A stretch of DNA of 64,000 nt from Nitrosopumilus sp. (GCA_013215285.1 JABSRD010000001.1:418919-482918); one strand, 5' to 3'. Shown: positions 10,589-21,814, counted from the stretch's first letter. Numbers and translations are program-made. The notes: generated by a model from the letters alone, not told the origin.

Positions 10589-10915
10589 TTATGCTAATGC
10601 TCTTTCAATCATATTTTTGTATGATTCTTTAGAAGCAGCACCTACTTGCTGGCTGGCTATTTCACCTTTGTTAAAGAGAATCAAGGTTGGAATGCTAAAG
10701 ACATTGTATTTTGATGCCAATTCATTAGCCTCATCAACATTAACTTTGACAAATTTTACTTTACCGTCATAGTCATTTGCTAATTCTTCAACTACTGGGC
10801 CCACCATTCTACATGGACCACACCATTCTGCCCAAAAGTCTACAAATACTGGAATATCTGAATTTATCACATCTACTTCCCAAGTTTTTGCATCTGAAAT
10901 TTGTGTAATTCCCAT
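10589..10915 (-). CDS. trxA: Thioredoxin
   Basis: FWAEWCGPC active site, SIPTL. Confidence 0.97.
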   Translation of the reverse strand: MGITQISDAKTWEVDVINSDIPVFVDFWAEWCGPCRMVGPVVEELANDYDGKVKFVKVNVDEANELASKYNVFSIPTLILFNKGEIASQQVGAASKESYKNMIERALA

Positions 10916-12697: not shown

Positions 12698-14224
12698 CTA
12701 TAAAACAGAATCTTTTGTTTGGAATATTCGTTGGAAATATTCAGAATGTTCTGATGGTTCTTCAATATCATTAGTTATTCCTGCAAGATGTTTTGCAAGA
12801 TTCTTTTTGTATCCAATTTGCATTTGTCTTTGAATTTGTATTCTTTGAGCTTGTGGAGAACCTGCACCATGCATAGATTCTGTAAGATATCCAACAGAAT
12901 TTCTACCAAGAGTCATGTTTTCAATTAATCTTAAAATCCTCATTCTATTTTCAACGTCAACTCCTTTTCTTCCTACAAGGAATTTTTTGAGCATTGGACC
13001 AGCTATTGGATGTCTAAAGTCTTTTTCAGAAGGAAGAGTAACTACTAATCCACCTGCAATATCTTGTGCAAGTCTACTAATTTCATATGGGAATCTAGTG
13101 ACATTATGTTTACAAACTTGTGCAAGCATATCTTCATTTAGATAAACACCAGATTTCAGTTTATGTCCTAGATGAGAAGATGCAATACCTACAGCAAATA
13201 TGGATTCATTAAGATGCGTCATCTCAATTAATTTATCTTTAATGTGAGATACCTTTGGCACTCCATTGTAATCAGCAATTGTAGCTGCTGCACCAATTAA
13301 TACATCACCAAGTCCTGTTTTGCATACATAACTGCGTCTATGATAACAAGTAAAACGTTCAATTAGCATAGCTGCAAATTCATGTTCTCCATTCATGAAC
13401 ACTTTATCCCATGGAATAAACACTCTTTCTAAAATCATCAAAGCTTCTTGGCCAGCATATTTTGCATTACCATCATCAATGTCACCATCCTCCATACTTC
13501 GTGTGTCGCAAGACTGTCTACCGTAAATGTAAGTAACTCCTTTGGCATCTGCAGGAATCACACCAACAAATGCCCATTCTTTATCTTTTTCAGTTAATCT
13601 AACTGTTGGCATTAAAATTATCCAATGTGAATTAATGCAACCAGTTTGATGTGCTTTAGCACCTGATACATAGATTCCTTTATCATCGCTATCTATTATT
13701 CTAGTAAACATATCAGGATCATCTTGTTCTGATGGTCCCTTACTTCTATCCCCTTTAGGATCAGTCATTGCACCACCAATTACAAGATTTTCTTGTTGAA
13801 CCATTTTTACAAATTCTAAGAATCGTTTATGATAATCTGTTCCATGTTTTTCATCAATTTCAAAAGTTACAGAATGTAAAGAATTCAATGCATCCATTCC
13901 AACACATCTCTGGAAACATGTTCCAGTGTTTTGTCCCAACGTTCTTTGCATTTTATTTTGTAAAACCAAATCTTCTGCACTTTCTGCAATGTGTAAAAAT
14001 CGATTAACTTGCAATCCAGTAATAGATGAATTAGCAGTAGCTAATGCTGCTTCACGTACAGCAAGATCATAAGTTTCTGCAACTGCATTAATTGATGGTC
14101 TAATCATTGGATGATCTACTGGTTCTTTAATTAATTCTCCAAATAGGTAAATTACAAGATCGCGTCCTCTAAGACTTTCGATATAATCTTCGCCAGTTCT
14201 AATTGTCTTTAAGACATTGGCCAT
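12698..14224 (-). CDS. abfD: 4-hydroxybutyryl-CoA dehydratase (3HP/4HB cycle)
   Basis: CFQRCVGMD (Fe-S Cys), AMTDPKGDRS, GAKAHQTG, CYHRRSY, MHGAGSPQAQ. Confidence 0.95.
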   Translation of the reverse strand: MANVLKTIRTGEDYIESLRGRDLVIYLFGELIKEPVDHPMIRPSINAVAETYDLAVREAALATANSSITGLQVNRFLHIAESAEDLVLQNKMQRTLGQNTGTCFQRCVGMDALNSLHSVTFEIDEKHGTDYHKRFLEFVKMVQQENLVIGGAMTDPKGDRSKGPSEQDDPDMFTRIIDSDDKGIYVSGAKAHQTGCINSHWIILMPTVRLTEKDKEWAFVGVIPADAKGVTYIYGRQSCDTRSMEDGDIDDGNAKYAGQEALMILERVFIPWDKVFMNGEHEFAAMLIERFTCYHRRSYVCKTGLGDVLIGAAATIADYNGVPKVSHIKDKLIEMTHLNESIFAVGIASSHLGHKLKSGVYLNEDMLAQVCKHNVTRFPYEISRLAQDIAGGLVVTLPSEKDFRHPIAGPMLKKFLVGRKGVDVENRMRILRLIENMTLGRNSVGYLTESMHGAGSPQAQRIQIQRQMQIGYKKNLAKHLAGITNDIEEPSEHSEYFQRIFQTKDSVL

Positions 14225-14248
14225 GTAACAATATTTGTTCTCATCTTG

Positions 14249-14254
14249 TATAAA
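14249..14254 (-). promoter_or_regulatory. TATA box for the dehydratase gene (probably leaderless mRNA)
   Basis: Minus-strand TTTATA about 25 nt upstream of the ATG at 14224. Confidence 0.5.
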
Positions 14255-14297
14255 TATTCTAAATTAGTGTAAGCTAAATTTTAGGAATGAATTTCAA

Positions 14298-16394
14298 TTA
14301 TAGTCCTATTCGGACATCAAGAATACGACATCCTTTACCTTTCTCCATTACAAGAACCGGATTCATGTCTAATTCTTTGATTTCTTTAAAGTCAGAAACC
14401 AGTTGAGATAATCTCTGAATACATTCAGAGAGTTTAGGTATATCTGAAGGCTTTTCACCTCTTACTCCTTGTAGTATCTTTTGAGTTTTAATTGAGGCAA
14501 TCATATCATCAGCTTCTTTATCAGTCACTGGTGCAATCTTGAATGTAACGTCTTTGAAAACCTCAACGTAGATTCCTCCCATTCCAAGCATAATTACTGG
14601 ACCAAATCCAGGCTCTTGTTTTGAACCAATGATTAATTCTTTACCTCCTTTTACCATCTCAACAATCAAGACACCTTTGATCTCAGCTTTCTTGTTGTAA
14701 TTTTTAGCATTTTTAATAATTGTTTTAAAAGCATCTTTAATTTCAGAATCATTAGTCAAGTTTACTTTAACACCACCTGCATCAGATTTGTGAATAATTT
14801 GAGGGGATGCAATCTTCATTACTACTGGATAACCAATTTTCTTTGCAATTTTAACTGCTTCTGATTCATTTGCTGCAAGTGCACTTGAAGGTAATGGTAA
14901 ACCATATGCTTTGAGAACATCTTGTCCTTCTTCTTCTAGAAGATTTGGTCGTTTTTCTTTTTTTACTTTATCAAAGATTTTTTTTGCTTTAGCTTTGTTT
15001 ACTTTGAATTTAGTAATTTTTCCAGGTGACGACATTGTCCAGTTATAAAATCTAGTCATTGCTGCAAGAGTTCTGATTGCACCTTCTGCATAAGTATAGT
15101 ATGGCACACCTCCATCAGCTAAAATTTCTCTGTTTGTAATTCCTTCATCTAATCCCATCAAACTTGCAAGCATTGTTTTTTTATATTTCTTGGACATTGT
15201 AACAATCACTTCAGCAAGTTTATCATAGTTTAGAATACCAGAAGGAGTACACATTGTAATAACAGAACCAACTTTTGGATGTTTTAGTACACGATCTAAT
15301 ACATTATGAAATCGATTAAAATCAGCATCACCAACAATATCAACGGGGTTTCTAGAGCTTCCCCAAGGTGGAATTACCTCATCAATCTTTTTTCTAATGC
15401 TTGTAATATCTGCCATTTTTAATTTCAATTTAGAGCATGCATCAGTTGAAATGATTGCAGGACCTCCTGCATTTGAAACAATTACAAGTTCACCACCTGA
15501 TGGTAACGGTTGTTTAGAAAATGCAGTTGCATAATCAAATAATTCTTCCATAGTATCAACCCTAATTGCTCCTGATTGTTTCAATAAAGCATCATAGATT
15601 TCATCTGAACCCATCAAAGCTCCAGTATGAGACATTGCAGCCTTTGCACCTTCTGGACTACGCCCTGATTTTAGAACAAGAACAGGTTTTTTGAGTTTTT
15701 TAGTAATATTTTTACAAACTTTAAGGAATTCTTGGCCATCACCCATATCTTCAAGATACATCACAATAACTTCAGTTTGCTTATGATTTGCCAATATCTT
15801 TAGAACATCAACTTCACTCATTGTAGCTTTATTCCCTAAACTGATTACTGCAGAGAATCCAATGCCCTGAGCACTAGCATCTTCAACTAATGCAGCACAT
15901 ATTGCACCACTCTGTGATACAAGTGCAATTTTTCCAGACTTTGGAGTGATTTTAAGAAATGTTGAATTCATCATTGTCTTTGGATCAAGATTCATGATGC
16001 CAAGACAATTGGGTCCAATAATTTGGATTTTGTATTTTTTTGCAATGTCTTTAAGTTGTTGTTCTCGTTTTGCACCTTCTTCATCTACTTCTTTAAAACC
16101 AGCTGTAATGATAATGACGCCTTTGATTTTTTTCTTACCACATTCTTCTAAGACATCTGCAACAAGTGTATTTTTAATGACAACTACTGCAAGATCAATT
16201 GGTTTTGGAACATCTAAAACACTCTTGTATGCTTTTTTGTAAAAGACAGTGTCCCTTGAAGGACTAATTGGATAAACAATACCAGTAAAACCATTCATAA
16301 TGTTTGAAGTAATTGTAGCTCCAACACTTCCCCTCTTGTCAGATGCACCAATTACTGCAATTGATTTTGGTGACAAAAAAACAGATTCTGCCAT
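14298..16394 (-). CDS. ADP-forming acyl-CoA synthetase, probable 4-hydroxybutyrate-CoA ligase
   Basis: CoA-binding IAVIGAS, IIGPNCLG, SQSGA, SHTGAL (phospho-His), NPVDIVGDA, ATP-grasp HKSDAGGV. Adjacent to abfD, as described for Nitrosopumilus. Confidence 0.85.
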   Translation of the reverse strand: MAESVFLSPKSIAVIGASDKRGSVGATITSNIMNGFTGIVYPISPSRDTVFYKKAYKSVLDVPKPIDLAVVVIKNTLVADVLEECGKKKIKGVIIITAGFKEVDEEGAKREQQLKDIAKKYKIQIIGPNCLGIMNLDPKTMMNSTFLKITPKSGKIALVSQSGAICAALVEDASAQGIGFSAVISLGNKATMSEVDVLKILANHKQTEVIVMYLEDMGDGQEFLKVCKNITKKLKKPVLVLKSGRSPEGAKAAMSHTGALMGSDEIYDALLKQSGAIRVDTMEELFDYATAFSKQPLPSGGELVIVSNAGGPAIISTDACSKLKLKMADITSIRKKIDEVIPPWGSSRNPVDIVGDADFNRFHNVLDRVLKHPKVGSVITMCTPSGILNYDKLAEVIVTMSKKYKKTMLASLMGLDEGITNREILADGGVPYYTYAEGAIRTLAAMTRFYNWTMSSPGKITKFKVNKAKAKKIFDKVKKEKRPNLLEEEGQDVLKAYGLPLPSSALAANESEAVKIAKKIGYPVVMKIASPQIIHKSDAGGVKVNLTNDSEIKDAFKTIIKNAKNYNKKAEIKGVLIVEMVKGGKELIIGSKQEPGFGPVIMLGMGGIYVEVFKDVTFKIAPVTDKEADDMIASIKTQKILQGVRGEKPSDIPKLSECIQRLSQLVSDFKEIKELDMNPVLVMEKGKGCRILDVRIGL

Positions 16395-16456
16395 TATGTT
16401 GGATCTCAAGATTTTATATAATAAAGTTATTCATGGAAATTTCTGATCTATGGTTT

Positions 16457-17277: not shown

Positions 17278-17562
17278 TCAATCTAAAGTAATCTTTAGGA
17301 AAATTATCAATCCTGCAAGTTCTGCAATTCCTACTCCTAACATGTATGGAAATATCTCATTAGAGAAAAGCATCTCCATTGAAAAATAAGCAACGCCACC
17401 AATTACATTATGCAAAAATAGCATACCTGCAACAACAATCATACCTAATGGAAGTTGTGCTCTAGTCTTACTATACATCCTTCCAAATATAGCAATTATA
17501 ATTCCAAGTATTATCATATTTGCGATTGAAACAATAGATAAGATTAGAGATGTTGATTCCAT
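17278..17562 (-). CDS. Small 3-TM membrane protein
   Basis: Three hydrophobic helices. Lies directly downstream of the wHTH gene. Confidence 0.75.
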   Translation of the reverse strand: MESTSLILSIVSIANMIILGIIIAIFGRMYSKTRAQLPLGMIVVAGMLFLHNVIGGVAYFSMEMLFSNEIFPYMLGVGIAELAGLIIFLKITLD

Positions 17563-17587
17563 TTAGTAAAAAACACCTCTTGAGCTT

Positions 17588-17890
17588 TTATTTACTTTTA
17601 TCCAATTTTTGTTCAATCTCTTCAAAAGACTCCATATTTGCTTCAAGAAAAGAGGAAATAAAGAAGGAAACAGCATACTTTTCTCCAATTCTAGTTATCA
17701 TGTTATTTTTTTCAAGAACCTTAATGTGATGTTGAATAGCCTTGTAATCAAGACCCATTTTATTTGCCAGTTGGTTAGTGTTAAATTGATTTTCCTTTAA
17801 TTTTGAAATAATTTTTAATCGATTTAGTCCCCCTCGTGAACCTGCAAATACAAACCAAAGTAGTCTTTTTGCATCAGGATCATTTGCCAT
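17588..17890 (-). CDS. ArsR-like winged-helix transcriptional regulator
   Basis: GSRGGLNRLKII, NTNQLANKMGLDYKAIQHHIKVL. Confidence 0.88.
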   Translation of the reverse strand: MANDPDAKRLLWFVFAGSRGGLNRLKIISKLKENQFNTNQLANKMGLDYKAIQHHIKVLEKNNMITRIGEKYAVSFFISSFLEANMESFEEIEQKLDKSK

Positions 17891-17992
17891 GGGTAATGAA
17901 ATTATTCTAATTTGCCACTAAAAGGTATTTTGGGTTTGAACTTGAATAGAAAGTATAAAAAACATAATCAAGCAAATTCTTTTGAAATACAT

Positions 17993-18874
17993 ATGATGTT
18001 AAATTATGATGCTCCATTATACAGACCTCCTTCAGAAGCAAAATCATTAATTTTTCAAGTGACTCTAGGTTGTTCATTTAACGAATGTTCTTTTTGTGAT
18101 ATGTATAGATCAAAAGAATATTCTGAAAGAACATGGGATGAAATTAAAACAGAAATTGATATGATGGCAAATTATTTGCCTGACACCAAAAGAGTATTTC
18201 TTGCAGATGGAGATGCATTAAATCTTGATTCAGAGTTTATGATAAAAATTGTAAAATACATTAGAGAAAAATTTGCAAATATTGAAAGAATTGCTTGTTA
18301 TGCAATGCCTATGAATATTTTAAAGAAAACACCTGAAGAATTAAAGAAAATGAATGAAGCTGGACTAGACATGTTCTATCTAGGAATTGAAAGTGGTTCA
18401 GATATTGTTCTAAAAAAAGTAACAAAAGGTGCTATTGCAAAAACAATCATCAAATCTGTAAACAAAGCAAAAGATGCAGGTTACATAATGTCTTGTATGA
18501 TAATTTTAGGATTGGGAGGAAAAAAATATTCTAAAGAACATATCAAAGGTACAGCTGAAGTAATTAGTGCATGTTCACCACAATATGTGGGAACCCTAAC
18601 TCTCTATTTGGAAAACGGAATTAAACAAGAATTTATTGATAAATTCGAAGGTGAATTCATCAGAATTAATGATGACGAATCATTAAAAGAGCTGCATGAC
18701 TTGATCAATCAAATAGAGACTAAAGATGAAATTATTTTTAGAGCAAATCATGGTTCAAATGCATATACAATCAAAGGTACTTTTCCGCAAGACAAACAAG
18801 ATATGATAGATAAAATGGACTGGATGAAACAACATCCAGAAATTATACGTCCACAAGGGTTACGAGGATTCTAA
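17993..18874 (+). CDS. Radical SAM protein
   Basis: YRPPSEA, GCSFNECSFCDMY (Cx4Cx2C), VFLADGDAL, YLGIESG, FRANHGSN. Start taken at MMLNY. Confidence 0.88.
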   Translation: MMLNYDAPLYRPPSEAKSLIFQVTLGCSFNECSFCDMYRSKEYSERTWDEIKTEIDMMANYLPDTKRVFLADGDALNLDSEFMIKIVKYIREKFANIERIACYAMPMNILKKTPEELKKMNEAGLDMFYLGIESGSDIVLKKVTKGAIAKTIIKSVNKAKDAGYIMSCMIILGLGGKKYSKEHIKGTAEVISACSPQYVGTLTLYLENGIKQEFIDKFEGEFIRINDDESLKELHDLINQIETKDEIIFRANHGSNAYTIKGTFPQDKQDMIDKMDWMKQHPEIIRPQGLRGF

Positions 18875-19323
18875 ATTAAATTAACTTGGTTTAGATATAC
18901 AACTTTGAATATTTTAACTGAATAATCACCATCAAAGATTTTAGTTGTAAAGCCATTATCAGAATTAAGTACTCTAAACTTGTATTCATAATCACCATCA
19001 TTTTCTACATTTGTTTGAGCAAAATGAATTGCGCCATCATTTTTAAAAATTTGAATGATTACCGGATATCCTTCAACATGATTTACAACATTTCCTTCAA
19101 CAAATGCCCATGGCAATGTATTTGATTCAGGAGAATGGAAGAAAATAGTTGTTTTTTCAAGACCCATCATTGAGTTTAGAGGAATAATTTCAGTCTGAGC
19201 TTCATGAGTATGACCATTTATCAAAATTTGACCAGGATGAGGATGAGCAAATGCAAAAGAGGTTGTTAATGAAAATACCAATACTAGTAAAACACTTGTA
19301 AGGAAAAGTCCTTTCAAATTCAT
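18871..19323 (-). CDS. Secreted protein with His-rich mature N-terminus
   Basis: Signal peptide ending AFA, followed by HPHPGQILINGHTHE. Confidence 0.75.
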   Translation of the reverse strand: MNLKGLFLTSVLLVLVFSLTTSFAFAHPHPGQILINGHTHEAQTEIIPLNSMMGLEKTTIFFHSPESNTLPWAFVEGNVVNHVEGYPVIIQIFKNDGAIHFAQTNVENDGDYEYKFRVLNSDNGFTTKIFDGDYSVKIFKVVYLNQVNLI

Positions 19324-19357
19324 ATTTTTGATCTAATATAGTTCCATAAAAAATTTG

Positions 19358-19609
19358 TCAAATTGTATCAATTATAGATTTTAGATTATCAGGTAAATCT
19401 GGAAGTTCGGTATGACTTTCATTATTTTGAATCACCTCAGGGCCAATTCTTCTAACCTTTTGTGTGCCAATTAGTGTATCAATACTTCTTTGAATATCCT
19501 TTTCAGAAAATACTGACTTTAATTTTTCAATAATTATATCTTCATTTTCATATTTTTTGATGGCATATTGAACAATAATCATTTTTTCATTCATAGAGTA
19601 ATCTGTCAT
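19358..19609 (-). CDS. Hypothetical protein (possible winged-helix fold)
   Basis: 83-aa ORF in the co-oriented run 21009 to 18871. Confidence 0.7.
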   Translation of the reverse strand: MTDYSMNEKMIIVQYAIKKYENEDIIIEKLKSVFSEKDIQRSIDTLIGTQKVRRIGPEVIQNNESHTELPDLPDNLKSIIDTI

Positions 19610-19649
19610 TTGAAAATATCAATATGTGCAGAGTAAAAAACATTGCCTG

Positions 19650-19874
19650 TTATTGAAAAAGTTTCTTTTCAAGTTCATCGAGTTTTGGAATTCCTGTAAA
19701 TTCTAATTTCTCATTAATTACCAATCCAGGAGCAGTAAAAATTGGATATTTTTGTAGATATTCTGGTTTTTCTGTAACATCAATTAAATCATATTTTACT
19801 CCCAGTTCTTCTAACATTTTTTCTAAAACATTACAATTTGAGCATCCAGGAGTGGTTAGAACTTGTATCTTCAT
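19650..19874 (-). CDS. Small glutaredoxin/thioredoxin-like protein
   Basis: TPGCSNC motif and TAPGLVIN cis-Pro loop. Confidence 0.88.
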   Translation of the reverse strand: MKIQVLTTPGCSNCNVLEKMLEELGVKYDLIDVTEKPEYLQKYPIFTAPGLVINEKLEFTGIPKLDELEKKLFQ

Positions 19875-20008
19875 GATTCTGTGAATTGTTTTGGATTTTG
19901 TTCAAATGCCCATCTACATGTTGCACAACAAAATCGATATTCTTCTCCATTATGAGTAAGAGATTCGCCTTTTTCTCCCACTTCCATTCCACATACAGGA
20001 TCTTTCAT
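19871..20008 (-). CDS. YHS/TRASH metal-binding domain protein (45 aa)
   Basis: Missed by the ORF track. MKDPVCGMEVGEKGESLTHNGEEYRFCCATCRWAFEQNPKQFTES, with ATGA overlaps to both neighbours. Confidence 0.9.
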   Translation of the reverse strand: MKDPVCGMEVGEKGESLTHNGEEYRFCCATCRWAFEQNPKQFTES

Positions 20009-21009
20009 ATTTTCGTCTCTCTTAATCTACGAATTGATAGTACAAAAATTGGACTGAGTATTAACACAACTAACAAAATAGTGTAAAATGATTTGAAATT
20101 TTCCATATCTGCATGTCCATGATCATGTTCATCCATCTCAAATTCTGCTGGAATTGGTGTTAATTCAATTAACTGATTCCATCCTTGATGAATGAATGTC
20201 TCCTCATACCACTCATGGCCTTCTGGAAGACCATTAATAATTAAGAATGCACCAATGATTATCAACATCCATCCTGATGCTCTCTCTATTGATTCTCTTT
20301 TTACTGTAAGACTTTTTGTTGCATTAATTCCAATTACTGCCAAAACTGACATTAGAATTAGTGGAATTGCACGTCCAACGCCATGAACTAGCCCTACTGA
20401 TGCCCCAATCTCAAGACTTCCAGTACCTGCAATGTAAATTAAAAGCCAATAAAATAATGGATTGGGACATCCAACTCCTGCATTTCCTAATAGTAATCCC
20501 ATGAAAAATGATTTTGCATACTCTCCACGTTTTTGTATAAATTTTGGTGTTCCAGAATAAGAAGGCATTTTCAAAGAAATTATTTTTAATTGTGATAATC
20601 CAAAAACAAAAGCAGCAATACCTGCAATCAAAAACATTACAGTTGATATTTGATCAAGGGATGCACTTTGACCTAGTAGTGCAATAGCTACCCCGTAAGA
20701 TGTGATAGTAATTACTAGACCTAAACTAAATAGTAAGGCCATGGATAATCCTTTCTTGTATCCTTTTCCCATACTAAGTGGAACAATGATGAAAACAAGT
20801 GGGAGAGTGCAGGGTAACACAATCATGGATAAGCCTGCAACGTATGCAATTATTAACCATGAAAGATAACTCGTATGTTCTTGATTATTCAGTGTTGAAG
20901 ATGTTTCAAGAGCAAATACTGCACCAATAAAGATTAGAGAAAATAGTACAAAAGAAGTCAATACCATTGATTTTTTTGCAAGTGCTTGAACAGGCATGAT
21001 AATACTCAT
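20005..21009 (-). CDS. CcdA/DsbD-type transmembrane electron transporter (cytochrome c biogenesis family)
   Basis: Multi-TM protein with the paired Cys motifs LPCTLP and GVGCPNP, plus a His-rich DEHDHGHADM segment near the C-terminus. Confidence 0.8.
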   Translation of the reverse strand: MSIIMPVQALAKKSMVLTSFVLFSLIFIGAVFALETSSTLNNQEHTSYLSWLIIAYVAGLSMIVLPCTLPLVFIIVPLSMGKGYKKGLSMALLFSLGLVITITSYGVAIALLGQSASLDQISTVMFLIAGIAAFVFGLSQLKIISLKMPSYSGTPKFIQKRGEYAKSFFMGLLLGNAGVGCPNPLFYWLLIYIAGTGSLEIGASVGLVHGVGRAIPLILMSVLAVIGINATKSLTVKRESIERASGWMLIIIGAFLIINGLPEGHEWYEETFIHQGWNQLIELTPIPAEFEMDEHDHGHADMENFKSFYTILLVVLILSPIFVLSIRRLRETKI

Positions 21010-21213
21010 TTTAACAGATATTTAATCAAAGATATGAATTTAGAGACTGCTGATTTGATTATAATCATTCAAGTTTTCAAAAAAAATACATGGAAATAAG
21101 TAATGATCAGTATGATCTAAATACTATCATATAATACTAAAAATGATTGGAACTCTCACCAAATAACTAATCGTTGTTGGTCTTAAGATCCAATTATTTT
21201 ATAATTATAACAC

Positions 21214-21576
21214 TTAGTTTTGGTTTTTATAATAAAGTTTGATGACTTCATCTACAACAACATTGGTATCATGATCTTTTTCAGCACTTACAAGAAGTAA
21301 ATAATCATCACCAAGATAAAATGAAAAACGTTTAATCTTGTCATATTCAGACATGGTGTATTTTGTTTTGCCAAGAATTTTTGCAGTGTTTTTACGTGCT
21401 TTCCAATGAATAATGGAAAGATTAACCAATTCATTTTGCATATGTTCTGAAAGTGGATTGTCTAATCCATCTCTCATTCCACCTCCAACACGAACAGCCC
21501 ATTCATCATAAACAGAAGCAAATCTAATTTTAGGATCTTTATCTAAAATTTCTGAACAAAATTTTTCATAATCCAA
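21214..21576 (-). CDS. Hypothetical protein (roadblock/profilin-like thaumarchaeal family)
   Basis: MDYEKFCSEILDKDPKIRFASVYD...EYDKIKRFSF..GDDYLLLVS pattern. Confidence 0.7.
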   Translation of the reverse strand: MDYEKFCSEILDKDPKIRFASVYDEWAVRVGGGMRDGLDNPLSEHMQNELVNLSIIHWKARKNTAKILGKTKYTMSEYDKIKRFSFYLGDDYLLLVSAEKDHDTNVVVDEVIKLYYKNQN

Positions 21577-21659
21577 TGATTATTCTAAGAATTCTAAATT
21601 ATTAAAGTAAAAAAATCATGATAAACTTAGGCTCGAAAAGTAATGTTTGAGTGTAAAAA

Positions 21660-21734
21660 TGGGCCCGCGGGGATTTGAACCCCGGATTTTCGCCGTGTAA
21701 GGGCGACGTCATAACCGACCTGGACCACGAGCCC
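21660..21734 (-). tRNA. tRNA-Val(TAC)
   Basis: GGGCTCG/CGGGCCC acceptor, TCGCC-CT TAC AC-GGCGA, GGTTCAAATCC. Confidence 0.97.
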
Positions 21735-21814
21735 AGAAACCTACTTTGTTAAAATCCATTTAAACTTTGAGACATATGAAAATCTAAAAATGAAGATAAA
21801 ATATTAAAAGAATC

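Follow-up and report, generated by a model that had tools for sequence, protein, structure and literature searches.

A 64-kb stretch of DNA from Nitrosopumilus sp. (hereafter the window, on which coordinates are counted) carries three overlapping genes, encoding a CcdA/DsbD-like membrane protein, a small YHS/TRASH protein, and a small thioredoxin (Trx) of the Thioredoxin_3 (Trx_3) family. Judging from gene order and overlap, this trio appears to be a translationally coupled three-gene cassette and the functional unit of the locus, and it is near-universal in Nitrosopumilaceae. It may act as a copper-linked transmembrane thiol (reductant) relay, a reading that we prefer and hold tentatively. 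Both ammonia oxidation and respiration of ammonia-oxidizing archaea (AOA) depend on copper proteins outside the cytoplasm, and the trio is a concrete, testable candidate for copper acquisition or for keeping outside Cys ligands reduced in these organisms, since it is near-universal, often duplicated, and located beside TRASH regulators, cupredoxin, DsbA-like proteins, and a pair formed by a multicopper oxidase (MCO) and a ZIP-like permease.

Open reading frame (ORF) calling at 18871-21009 gave five co-oriented ORFs of 334, 45, 74, 83, and 150 amino acids (aa), all on the minus strand (Table 1), as the original prediction had described; the 45-aa gene, said to be missing from the ORF track, falls below the default ORF threshold of 60 aa. 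The last two genes are referred to here as sm83 and sec150. The plus strand reads 'tcat' at 20005-20008 and 19871-19874, so that the ATGA overlaps predicted at the CcdA/YHS and YHS/Trx junctions are both real. The CcdA-like gene most likely starts at the ATG at 20997 (330 aa) and not at 21009 (334 aa), because the product recorded in a sequence look-up is the exact 330-aa form (the 334-aa ORF product returned nothing), homologues span 327-333 aa, and the conserved ATTAAATAT box lies upstream at the distance given in Table 1. In related loci, gATTAAATATctg is kept at the equivalent position upstream of the CcdA-like start, and the ATTAAATAT box is a putative promoter of a leaderless ccdA-yhs-trx transcript. 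A scan with sigma-70 promoter and intrinsic-terminator models, which are not applicable to archaea, was set aside, the counts being at or below shuffle expectation. Homologues are found in Nitrosopumilus and its kin.

With regard to conservation, a scan of one genome per species yielded 294 relatives, and the best 80 of these 294 loci, all from Nitrosopumilaceae or mis-binned contigs, were compared (individual loci carry L numbers below). Presence was counted only in loci with enough downstream sequence, and taxon labels of metagenome bins are as deposited. The YHS and Trx genes each follow the membrane gene in 69/73 loci, and both do so in 66/73. The distance from the CcdA-like to the YHS gene is -4 nt in 73/78 cases; that from YHS to Trx is -4 nt in 45/70 and at most +2 nt in every one.

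The membrane protein scores 42.9 bits against PF02683 (DsbD_TM; cut-off 27.1, E = 4.4e-11) and also matches PF13386 (DsbD_2) at 8.3e-8 in Pfam. In NCBIfam, the transmembrane (TM) regions of DsbD and TsoB are matched at 1e-11 to 1e-14, including the PRK00293 DsbD TM region at 3.9e-11 over residues 42-257; the best match, TsoB (1.3e-14), lies far below the family cut-off. Residues 42-264, the core of the protein, can be aligned with the DsbD TM domain, and the only two cysteines, Cys63 (LPCTLP) and Cys177 (GCPNP), correspond to the Pro-flanked TM1/TM4 cysteines of DsbD/CcdA. In an alignment of 46 archaeal and bacterial homologues (~40% identity), LPCTLP, GNAGVGCPNP, and the outer motif GHxWYE(x4)HxGxN are invariant, and a DEHDHGH/HEHEH stretch is restricted to the Nitrosopumilaceae branch. 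Eight TM helices are indicated by an AlphaFold2 (AF2) model (predicted local distance difference test, pLDDT, 74) and by hydropathy, with only ~14 residues between TM0 and TM1. Because Lys and Arg concentrate in the even-numbered loops (18 vs 1 in the odd-numbered loops), the topology is predicted to be N-in/C-in, with a 49-aa loop (residues 255-303; 12 Asp/Glu, 5 His) outside. This loop carries both GHEWYE..H..GWN and DEHDHGH; the latter, previously taken for a tail of the protein, is thus located between TM7 and the final eighth TM helix. Taken together, the matches and motifs suggest that the protein represents a divergent 8-TM branch of the DsbD superfamily. Membership of the Mer-type transporters was rejected, as there is no Pfam match to MerT, MerC, or MerF, and any Mer-type likeness is by analogy only.

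The YHS protein matches PF04945 with 50.6 bits (cut-off 30.3, E = 2e-13) and PF24273 (TRASH) at 2.4e-10, and its cysteines (C6...C27, C28, x2, C31) fit the TRASH pattern C-x(19-22)-C-x3-C. The thioredoxin matches PF13192 with 57.8 bits (cut-off 24.8, E = 1.1e-15) and PF00462 at 2.8e-8. In NCBIfam it reaches 36.8 for TIGR00412 (cut-off 62) and 38.7 for TIGR00411 (cut-off 92.75), so by its scores it is best placed as a member of the fold family and not of a named NCBIfam subfamily. Weak NCBIfam matches of the thioredoxin to TsoC and of a nearby ArsR protein to TsoR are far below the cut-offs. The earlier family assignments (CcdA-like, YHS/TRASH, glutaredoxin-type) were therefore borne out by Pfam scores above the curated cut-offs for DsbD_TM, YHS, and Thioredoxin_3. 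Neither small protein has a signal peptide, and both should thus be cytoplasmic; the YHS protein is a putative Cu(I)-binding partner.

Several genomes hold two paralogous copies of the trio (L014 and L028, L005 and L063, L017 and L038). The second copy lacks sm83 and sec150 and is surrounded by membrane-anchored DsbA-like Thioredoxin_4 proteins (CPNC, CPFC), a plastocyanin-like protein, an HtrA protease, an MCO gene overlapping that of a ZIP-like permease, and a regulator of the Lrp/AsnC type whose C-terminal part is a TRASH domain. This Lrp-TRASH regulator (CDLC...CCNTC) adjoins the trio in 35/80 loci and in both locus types; in Nitrosarchaeum- or Nitrosotalea-type loci it lies upstream and is divergent, and in those of the paralogous type it lies downstream and is convergent. 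A cupredoxin gene and a DsbA-like gene are found directly upstream and co-directional in L003, L004, L009, and L082; in L011, which is cut at its 5′ end, the DsbA-like gene alone is visible upstream of the trio. In L081, the MCO gene and the overlapping gene for a 392-aa ZIP-like permease (HNFGEG/HNTTEG) immediately precede the paralogous trio and point in its direction; an MCO/permease pair of this kind has been suggested by others for copper uptake in AOA.

The cassette is not confined to ammonia oxidizers. A divergent Nitrosotenuis paralogue (L029b, 51% identity), followed by YHS and Trx genes, retrieves relatives labelled as DPANN archaea, candidate phyla radiation (CPR) bacteria, Pseudomonadota, Actinobacteria, and Deltaproteobacteria. 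In that Nitrosotenuis locus (L029), two cassettes are located 3.5 kb apart, an AOA-type CcdA-YHS pair without a thioredoxin and the divergent CcdA-like-YHS-Trx set; the second is of a type known otherwise from DPANN, CPR, and Proteobacteria, which suggests that the cassette has moved laterally. Among 62 further metagenome loci from outside AOA with enough downstream sequence, a YHS (25) or HMA (18) gene follows the membrane gene in 43, Trx_3 is present in 48, and at least one of the two (YHS/HMA or Trx_3) in 56; a P-type ATPase is found within 4 kb in 18 of the 43 loci that have enough flank. The order is also seen on three long contigs. L084 encodes a DsbD-like protein, an HMA protein (73 aa), Trx_3, and then an HMA-type P-type ATPase, and L086 a DsbD-like protein, a YHS protein (46 aa), Trx_3, and finally a P-type ATPase of the YHS type; a PadR regulator is present in L086 as well. 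In L088, a DsbD-like protein, an HMA protein, and Trx_3 are followed by a thioredoxin-reductase-like gene, and such a gene also adjoins the cassette in L090. In P0305, the membrane protein bears a fused YHS domain at its cytoplasmic N-terminus. DUF411 (CopG-like), PCYCGC, DsbA-like, or membrane-anchored TlpA-like proteins are encoded in addition at some loci. Of all the evidence, the exchange of YHS for HMA at one fixed place argues most strongly for a metallochaperone-type partner as the product of the middle gene. Because DPANN, CPR, and Proteobacteria repeat this order, the middle gene encoding YHS or HMA and P-type ATPases being close by, the analysis suggests a widespread metal-homeostasis module, which at present carries the erroneous labels 'cytochrome c biogenesis' or 'sulfite exporter TauE/SafE'.

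A working scheme for the relay can be described as follows. Briefly, the cytoplasmic Thioredoxin_3 protein (CSNC) would reduce the intramembrane Cys63/Cys177 pair of the 8-TM protein, which would carry reducing equivalents to its outer face. There, GHxWYE(x4)HxGxN, together with the DEHDHGH loop in Nitrosopumilaceae, might bind copper and/or dock membrane-anchored DsbA-like proteins, so that Cys ligands of extracytoplasmic cuproproteins, or copper itself, would be kept reduced. The 45-aa YHS/TRASH protein could serve as a cytoplasmic Cu(I) partner, chaperone, or sensor that ties the relay to copper status. We infer the electron flow, the outer acceptor, the promoters, and copper as the metal, the last because of the neighbouring genes. 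The relay is favoured because the membrane protein keeps the DsbD motifs, the cassette has a thioredoxin of its own (in some cases with a thioredoxin reductase nearby), DsbA- or TlpA-like neighbours occur in some copies, and precedents exist. CcdA-TlpA-ScoI acts in copper-centre assembly. ScsB/ScsC functions in copper tolerance (PMC3322552, PMC10907172). In addition, strong induction of DsbD-family genes was reported for N. viennensis when copper is limiting (PMC7785015).

Several observations weigh against the relay. The copper-induced DsbD gene of N. viennensis (NVIE_014160) has sialidase-like and hypothetical proteins as neighbours and neither YHS nor Trx; it was rejected as an orthologous operon on these differing neighbours and is a family-level lead only. 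DsbA-like, cupredoxin, and TRASH-regulator genes are absent from the 64-kb window, and a secreted thioredoxin-fold acceptor is evident in roughly 6 of the 62 non-AOA cassettes, most having none. A relay alone also leaves unexplained why a metallochaperone-like protein is coupled between redox partners, or fused N-terminally as in P0305. Among public RNA runs, none was found with the window sequence or locus L059; the sequencing runs in which these do occur look like DNA or are of an unspecified kind. At the structural level, a profile of the 46 sequences retrieved no solved structure, CcdA included, at E <= 10 from PDB sequences, and Foldseek with the AF2 model, which is of moderate confidence (pLDDT 74), returned no CcdA and nothing at E <= 0.001; membership in the DsbD superfamily therefore rests on Pfam/NCBIfam hidden Markov models (HMMs) and motifs.

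On the other hand, the membrane protein might be a thiol-based soft-metal (Cu(I)) transporter built on the CcdA scaffold, mer-like or cop-like, which we consider rather unlikely, and still the closest competitor of the relay. The Cys pair and the outer His/Glu site would then pass Cu(I) across the membrane, Cu(II) perhaps being reduced outside first, the YHS/HMA protein would receive or donate the metal, and Trx_3 would only re-reduce the oxidized Cys pair. The coupled or fused chaperone, the outer His loop, the cop-like layout, and the missing secreted partner are easier to account for with a transporter: YHS and HMA are interchangeable within a strictly conserved order of membrane protein, chaperone, and Trx_3; P0305 has its YHS domain fused N-terminally, on the cytoplasmic side; nearby P-type ATPases carry HMA or YHS at their N-termini; an outer, acidic, His-rich loop is typical of metal transporters; and most cassettes lack a secreted thioredoxin-fold partner. 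In addition, the AOA layout of Lrp-TRASH regulator, membrane protein, and TRASH chaperone mirrors Sulfolobus copR-copM-copA with the ATPase replaced, small Trx_3 (ArsE-type) proteins pair with Cys-dependent ArsP-type permeases, and induction of DsbD-family genes under copper limitation would fit a transporter as well. However, the hallmark P-C-x-x-P motifs are fully kept, an electron chain would agree with the thioredoxin-reductase genes and the TlpA- or DsbA-like neighbours of some loci, and import beside CopA-type exporters looks futile in bacterial, resistance-like contexts. To our knowledge, moreover, all experimentally characterized DsbD-superfamily proteins with these two Cys motifs move electrons and not metals.

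A variant that joins both ideas, namely thiol-driven reductive copper acquisition by a combined cupric reductase and Cu(I) permease, is in our judgement unlikely. In such a system, the outer His/Glu site would capture Cu(II), the thioredoxin-regenerated Cys pair would reduce it, and Cu(I) would be handed to the YHS/HMA chaperone. If true, this would be a previously unrecognized copper uptake route on the CcdA scaffold in AOA and in many DPANN, CPR, and proteobacterial lineages.

The relation of sm83 and sec150 to the trio bears on a further alternative, namely a single operon of all five genes in which the CcdA-like protein would serve an extracytoplasmic copper-binding partner, the secreted His-tipped protein. 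The five-gene order is kept in the window, in the cultured Nitrosopumilus sp. K4 (CP067007, L170), and in ~12 other loci; the spacers are short (40 nt before sm83 and 34 nt before sec150 in the window), and read-through transcription is possible. The predicted signal peptide of sec150 ends in AFA and the mature N-terminus would be HPHPGQILINGHTHE, so that HPHP...HTH follows directly, as had been noticed earlier; AHPH after the signal peptide is invariant in close homologues, and all of 18 homologues share A26, H27, P28, H29, H38, and H40. A conserved His at the N-terminus is reminiscent of copper sites of the CopC or histidine-brace type. Against this, sm83 is found downstream of the trio in 30/71 loci and sec150 in 9/64, in L016 and L022 the pair has the opposite orientation and diverges from the trio, the syntenic locus L171 has sm83-sec150-radical-SAM-ArsR with the trio absent, and paralogous trios and all non-AOA cassettes lack both genes. 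Both spacers, which are of steady length (33-50 nt between Trx and sm83 in 31/32 cases, 32-39 nt between sm83 and sec150 in 9/9), contain conserved T-tract/TATA-like boxes. Before sm83, aatgTTTTTTACTctg is conserved across genera and the rest of the spacer is variable; before sec150, TTTTTTATGG or CTTAAAC is found, with T-rich/TTAAA boxes equally distant in 11 loci. Each spacer element may be an archaeal oligo-T terminator and/or the TATA box of a leaderless mRNA. Mature sec150 has no Cys, and it therefore cannot be a thiol-disulfide electron acceptor; it has no CopC Pfam or fold match, and the His tip is missing from many relatives. The five-gene operon is thus quite improbable.

Since sm83 and sec150 are patchy, inverted in two loci, trio-free in one, and located behind conserved spacer elements, they appear to belong to a local synteny block with radical-SAM and ArsR genes and not to the trio, and they are probably separate transcription units neighbouring the cassette in some Nitrosopumilus lineages. 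Accordingly, the metal/redox operon of the original prediction stands for the first three genes as a unit and not for all five, and sec150 as the extracytoplasmic partner of the system is not supported, given the patchy distribution of this gene, its separability from the trio, and the Cys-free mature part. The gene-neighbourhood comparison across AOA and bacteria that had been proposed gave the same split, the trio order recurring and sm83 and sec150 not consistently co-occurring with it.

Both proteins were also characterized in their own right. sm83 always adjoins the convergent radical-SAM block, has a mean column identity of 84% in 16 orthologues, and has no Pfam, NCBIfam, or PDB profile match. 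For sec150, no Pfam or NCBIfam family was found, and its profile gave nothing meaningful against PDB sequences. The AF2 model is all-beta (pLDDT 72), with the His tip in a low-confidence, probably flexible segment, and a fold search against the PDB gave no significant match, only weak generic beta-sandwiches (best E 0.018, TM-score < 0.4). CopC was not matched by sec150 in Pfam at E <= 0.1 and was absent from the top 50 fold matches. An exhaustive profile search collected 124 clusters at 50% identity, mostly small secreted proteins, with the core LPWGFVEG...YPVIIQ...VHFAQ...DG.YEY.FRV...IFKV; AHPH right after the signal peptide occurs in only part of this family. The profile also weakly matches cadherin, fn3, and Ig (immunoglobulin) repeats in giant proteins (P0372 and others), which were rejected as specific kin because such repeats share a generic Ig-like fold. 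The core of sec150 thus appears to be a generic Ig-like beta-sandwich, and copper binding by its N-terminal His is possible, though unsupported.

The radical-SAM gene, whose stop overlaps that of sec150, carries the cluster motif CSFNECSFC (CX4CX2C) in place of the usual CX3CX2C, has partial matches to B12-binding radical-SAM methyltransferase models far below their cut-offs, and is a neighbour of sm83 across genera. Next to it, a pair of genes encodes a Cys-free ArsR-family helix-turn-helix (HTH) protein of 100 aa together with a membrane protein of 94 aa, which the precomputed annotation assigns to Pfam DUF8036. This pair, with a conserved ACCTTTTAGT box upstream, follows or diverges from the trio in many loci, some of which lack sm83 and the radical-SAM gene.

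The weakest alternative, an ordinary CcdA for cytochrome c maturation, as implied by the Pfam family name DsbD_TM and by the source annotation 'cytochrome c-type biogenesis protein', is very improbable, because ResB/ResC, CcsBA, Ccm, and ResA/CcmG genes are absent from all annotated neighbourhoods examined (L081, L082, L084, L086, L088, L170, L171), 6-TM CcdA lacks the conserved outer His motif and two of the TM helices of this protein, the profile finds no solved CcdA, the partners are metal-binding proteins, and c-type cytochromes are not known from AOA (Walker et al. 2010). Metal or thiol neighbours recur instead, in agreement with the earlier proposal of metal/redox handling rather than cytochrome c maturation.

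The context of the trio in the window is otherwise of a housekeeping type, including enzymes of the 3-hydroxypropionate/4-hydroxybutyrate (HP/HB) cycle, RNase H, and a canonical thioredoxin 9 kb away. This thioredoxin has as neighbours a gene of the 4-hydroxybutyryl-CoA dehydratase type and one for an ADP-forming CoA ligase, both typical of the thaumarchaeal carbon-fixation cycle. Upstream of the trio, a tRNA-Val(TAC) gene borders the site at which the trio is present or absent between genomes (cf. L171). In L171, a 163-aa membrane ORF on the opposite strand occupies the trio slot; it has a TPGCPAC motif, a C-terminal SCC, and no Pfam match, and it may be another thiol-based membrane protein filling this position. 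The window itself appears to be a mosaic: compared with its closest relative (L055), the flanks are 88-98% identical and the CcdA ORF (window ~20000-20990) 38-85%, and this stretch is 75-93% identical to the paralogous-locus allele in L001. It appears that the CcdA gene of the window was replaced by a paralogue-type allele via recombination, with breakpoints near the CcdA start and the YHS start.

Table 1. Positions of the genes and sequence elements discussed, in the window unless a locus is given.
Feature	Position	Strand	Details
CcdA/DsbD-superfamily membrane protein	20005..20997 (ORF reaches 21009)	-	330 aa; PF02683, PF13386
YHS/TRASH protein, predicted cytoplasmic	19871..20008	-	45 aa; PF04945, PF24273
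Thioredoxin_3/glutaredoxin-like protein, predicted cytoplasmic	19650..19874	-	74 aa; PF13192, PF00462; active site CSNC
sm83, predicted cytoplasmic, no assigned family	19358..19609	-	83 aa; invariant DTLIGTQ.VRRIGP..QNNESHTE
sec150, predicted secreted Ig-like beta-sandwich	18871..19323	-	150 aa; signal peptide, residues 1-26
TATA-like box ATTAAATAT	21018..21026	-	21-29 nt upstream of ATG 20997
Spacer element aatgTTTTTTACTctg	19629..19644	-	20-35 nt upstream of sm83 ATG
Spacer element caaaTTTTTTATGg, T-tract/TATA-like	19344..19357	-	21-34 nt upstream of sec150 ATG
Radical-SAM gene	17912-18874	+	convergent with sec150
ArsR/DUF8036 gene pair	17278-17890	-	
4-Hydroxybutyryl-CoA dehydratase-type gene and CoA ligase gene	12698-16409	-	HpaB_N/HpaB; ATP-grasp_5
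Canonical thioredoxin	10589-10915	-	PF00085, 6e-31
DUF6659-like gene	21214-21576	-	120 aa; upstream of trio
tRNA-Val(TAC)	21659-21735	-	upstream of trio
Lrp-TRASH regulator	L078:7504-7940	-	
Lrp-TRASH regulator	L082:10575-11015	-	
MCO and ZIP-like permease genes	L081:5717-7940	+	
Two cassettes of Nitrosotenuis	L029:8001-13868		
Membrane ORF in trio slot	L171:5136-5627	-	163 aa

Among known systems, the CcdA/DsbD proteins (PF02683; CcdA of B. subtilis, R. capsulatus, and plastids, and DsbD of E. coli) resemble the trio in the above-cut-off HMM match, the Pro-flanked TM1/TM4 cysteines, and a candidate cytoplasmic donor of the thioredoxin fold encoded alongside; a candidate acceptor (DsbA-like) adjoins the trio in some paralogous copies only. 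However, CcdA has 6 TM helices and the trio protein 8, with an extra helix at both the N- and C-terminal ends, and an invariant outer GHxWYE...H motif and a His-rich loop are present in the latter. Unlike CcdA/DsbD, the trio has no fused or consistently adjacent periplasmic thioredoxin-fold acceptor and no cytochrome c genes, and it couples a dedicated Trx_3 and a metallochaperone-like gene translationally.

The Sulfolobus cop cluster comprises CopR/CopT (Lrp-HTH and TRASH), CopM (a TRASH chaperone), and CopA. The trio shares with it a stand-alone TRASH/YHS protein beside a membrane protein, and the frequent Lrp-TRASH regulator of AOA loci is a further likeness. It differs in having a DsbD-family thiol protein and a thioredoxin instead of a P-type ATPase; the window contains neither a regulator nor a copper P-type ATPase, and an adjoining ATPase is found only in non-AOA cassettes. 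With regard to CopC and histidine-brace proteins, sec150 is similar in being a small, secreted beta-sandwich whose mature form is predicted to begin with His (H-P-...), whereas it lacks a CopC Pfam or fold match and its His tip is probably flexible and is missing in many relatives.

The Scs system (ScsB/ScsC/ScsD; PMC3322552, PMC10907172) likewise ties a DsbD-family protein to copper homeostasis, and DsbA-fold partners are adjacent to the trio in some AOA copies (L003, L004, L009, L011, L082). In contrast to Scs, the trio protein does not carry a periplasmic N-terminal domain of the ScsB type, a DsbA-like neighbour is absent from the window, and the cassette adds a cytoplasmic YHS/HMA protein and Trx_3, which Scs lacks. 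Genes for CcdA and a thioredoxin as well as for 'redox-active disulfide protein 2' were reported in eight instances in ars operons with ArsC (Castillo & Saier 2010, PMC2963123). These are comparable in combining a CcdA homologue with a TIGR00412-type small thioredoxin in metal(loid) resistance, the function there being also only inferred; they differ in the arsenic context, and no YHS/HMA middle gene was described. The Tso 'three selenoprotein operon' (PMC13188914) also combines a DsbD-like protein, a small redox protein, and an ArsR-type regulator, but the scores of the trio are far below the cut-offs, and the trio has neither selenocysteine nor a rhodanese domain (TsoB being a rhodanese/DsbD fusion).

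No description of a cassette of DsbD-like, YHS/HMA, and Trx_3 proteins was found in the literature searched, so that the combination is, as originally supposed, undescribed there, with Castillo & Saier 2010 (PMC2963123) and Reyes et al. 2020 (PMC7785015) as partial precedents. Compared with all these systems, the trio is a divergent 8-TM branch of the DsbD family with a built-in metallochaperone-like protein and thioredoxin, which is widespread and routinely mis-annotated. A CcdA scaffold shown to move electrons, metal, or both in this setting would extend the known roles of the DsbD superfamily.

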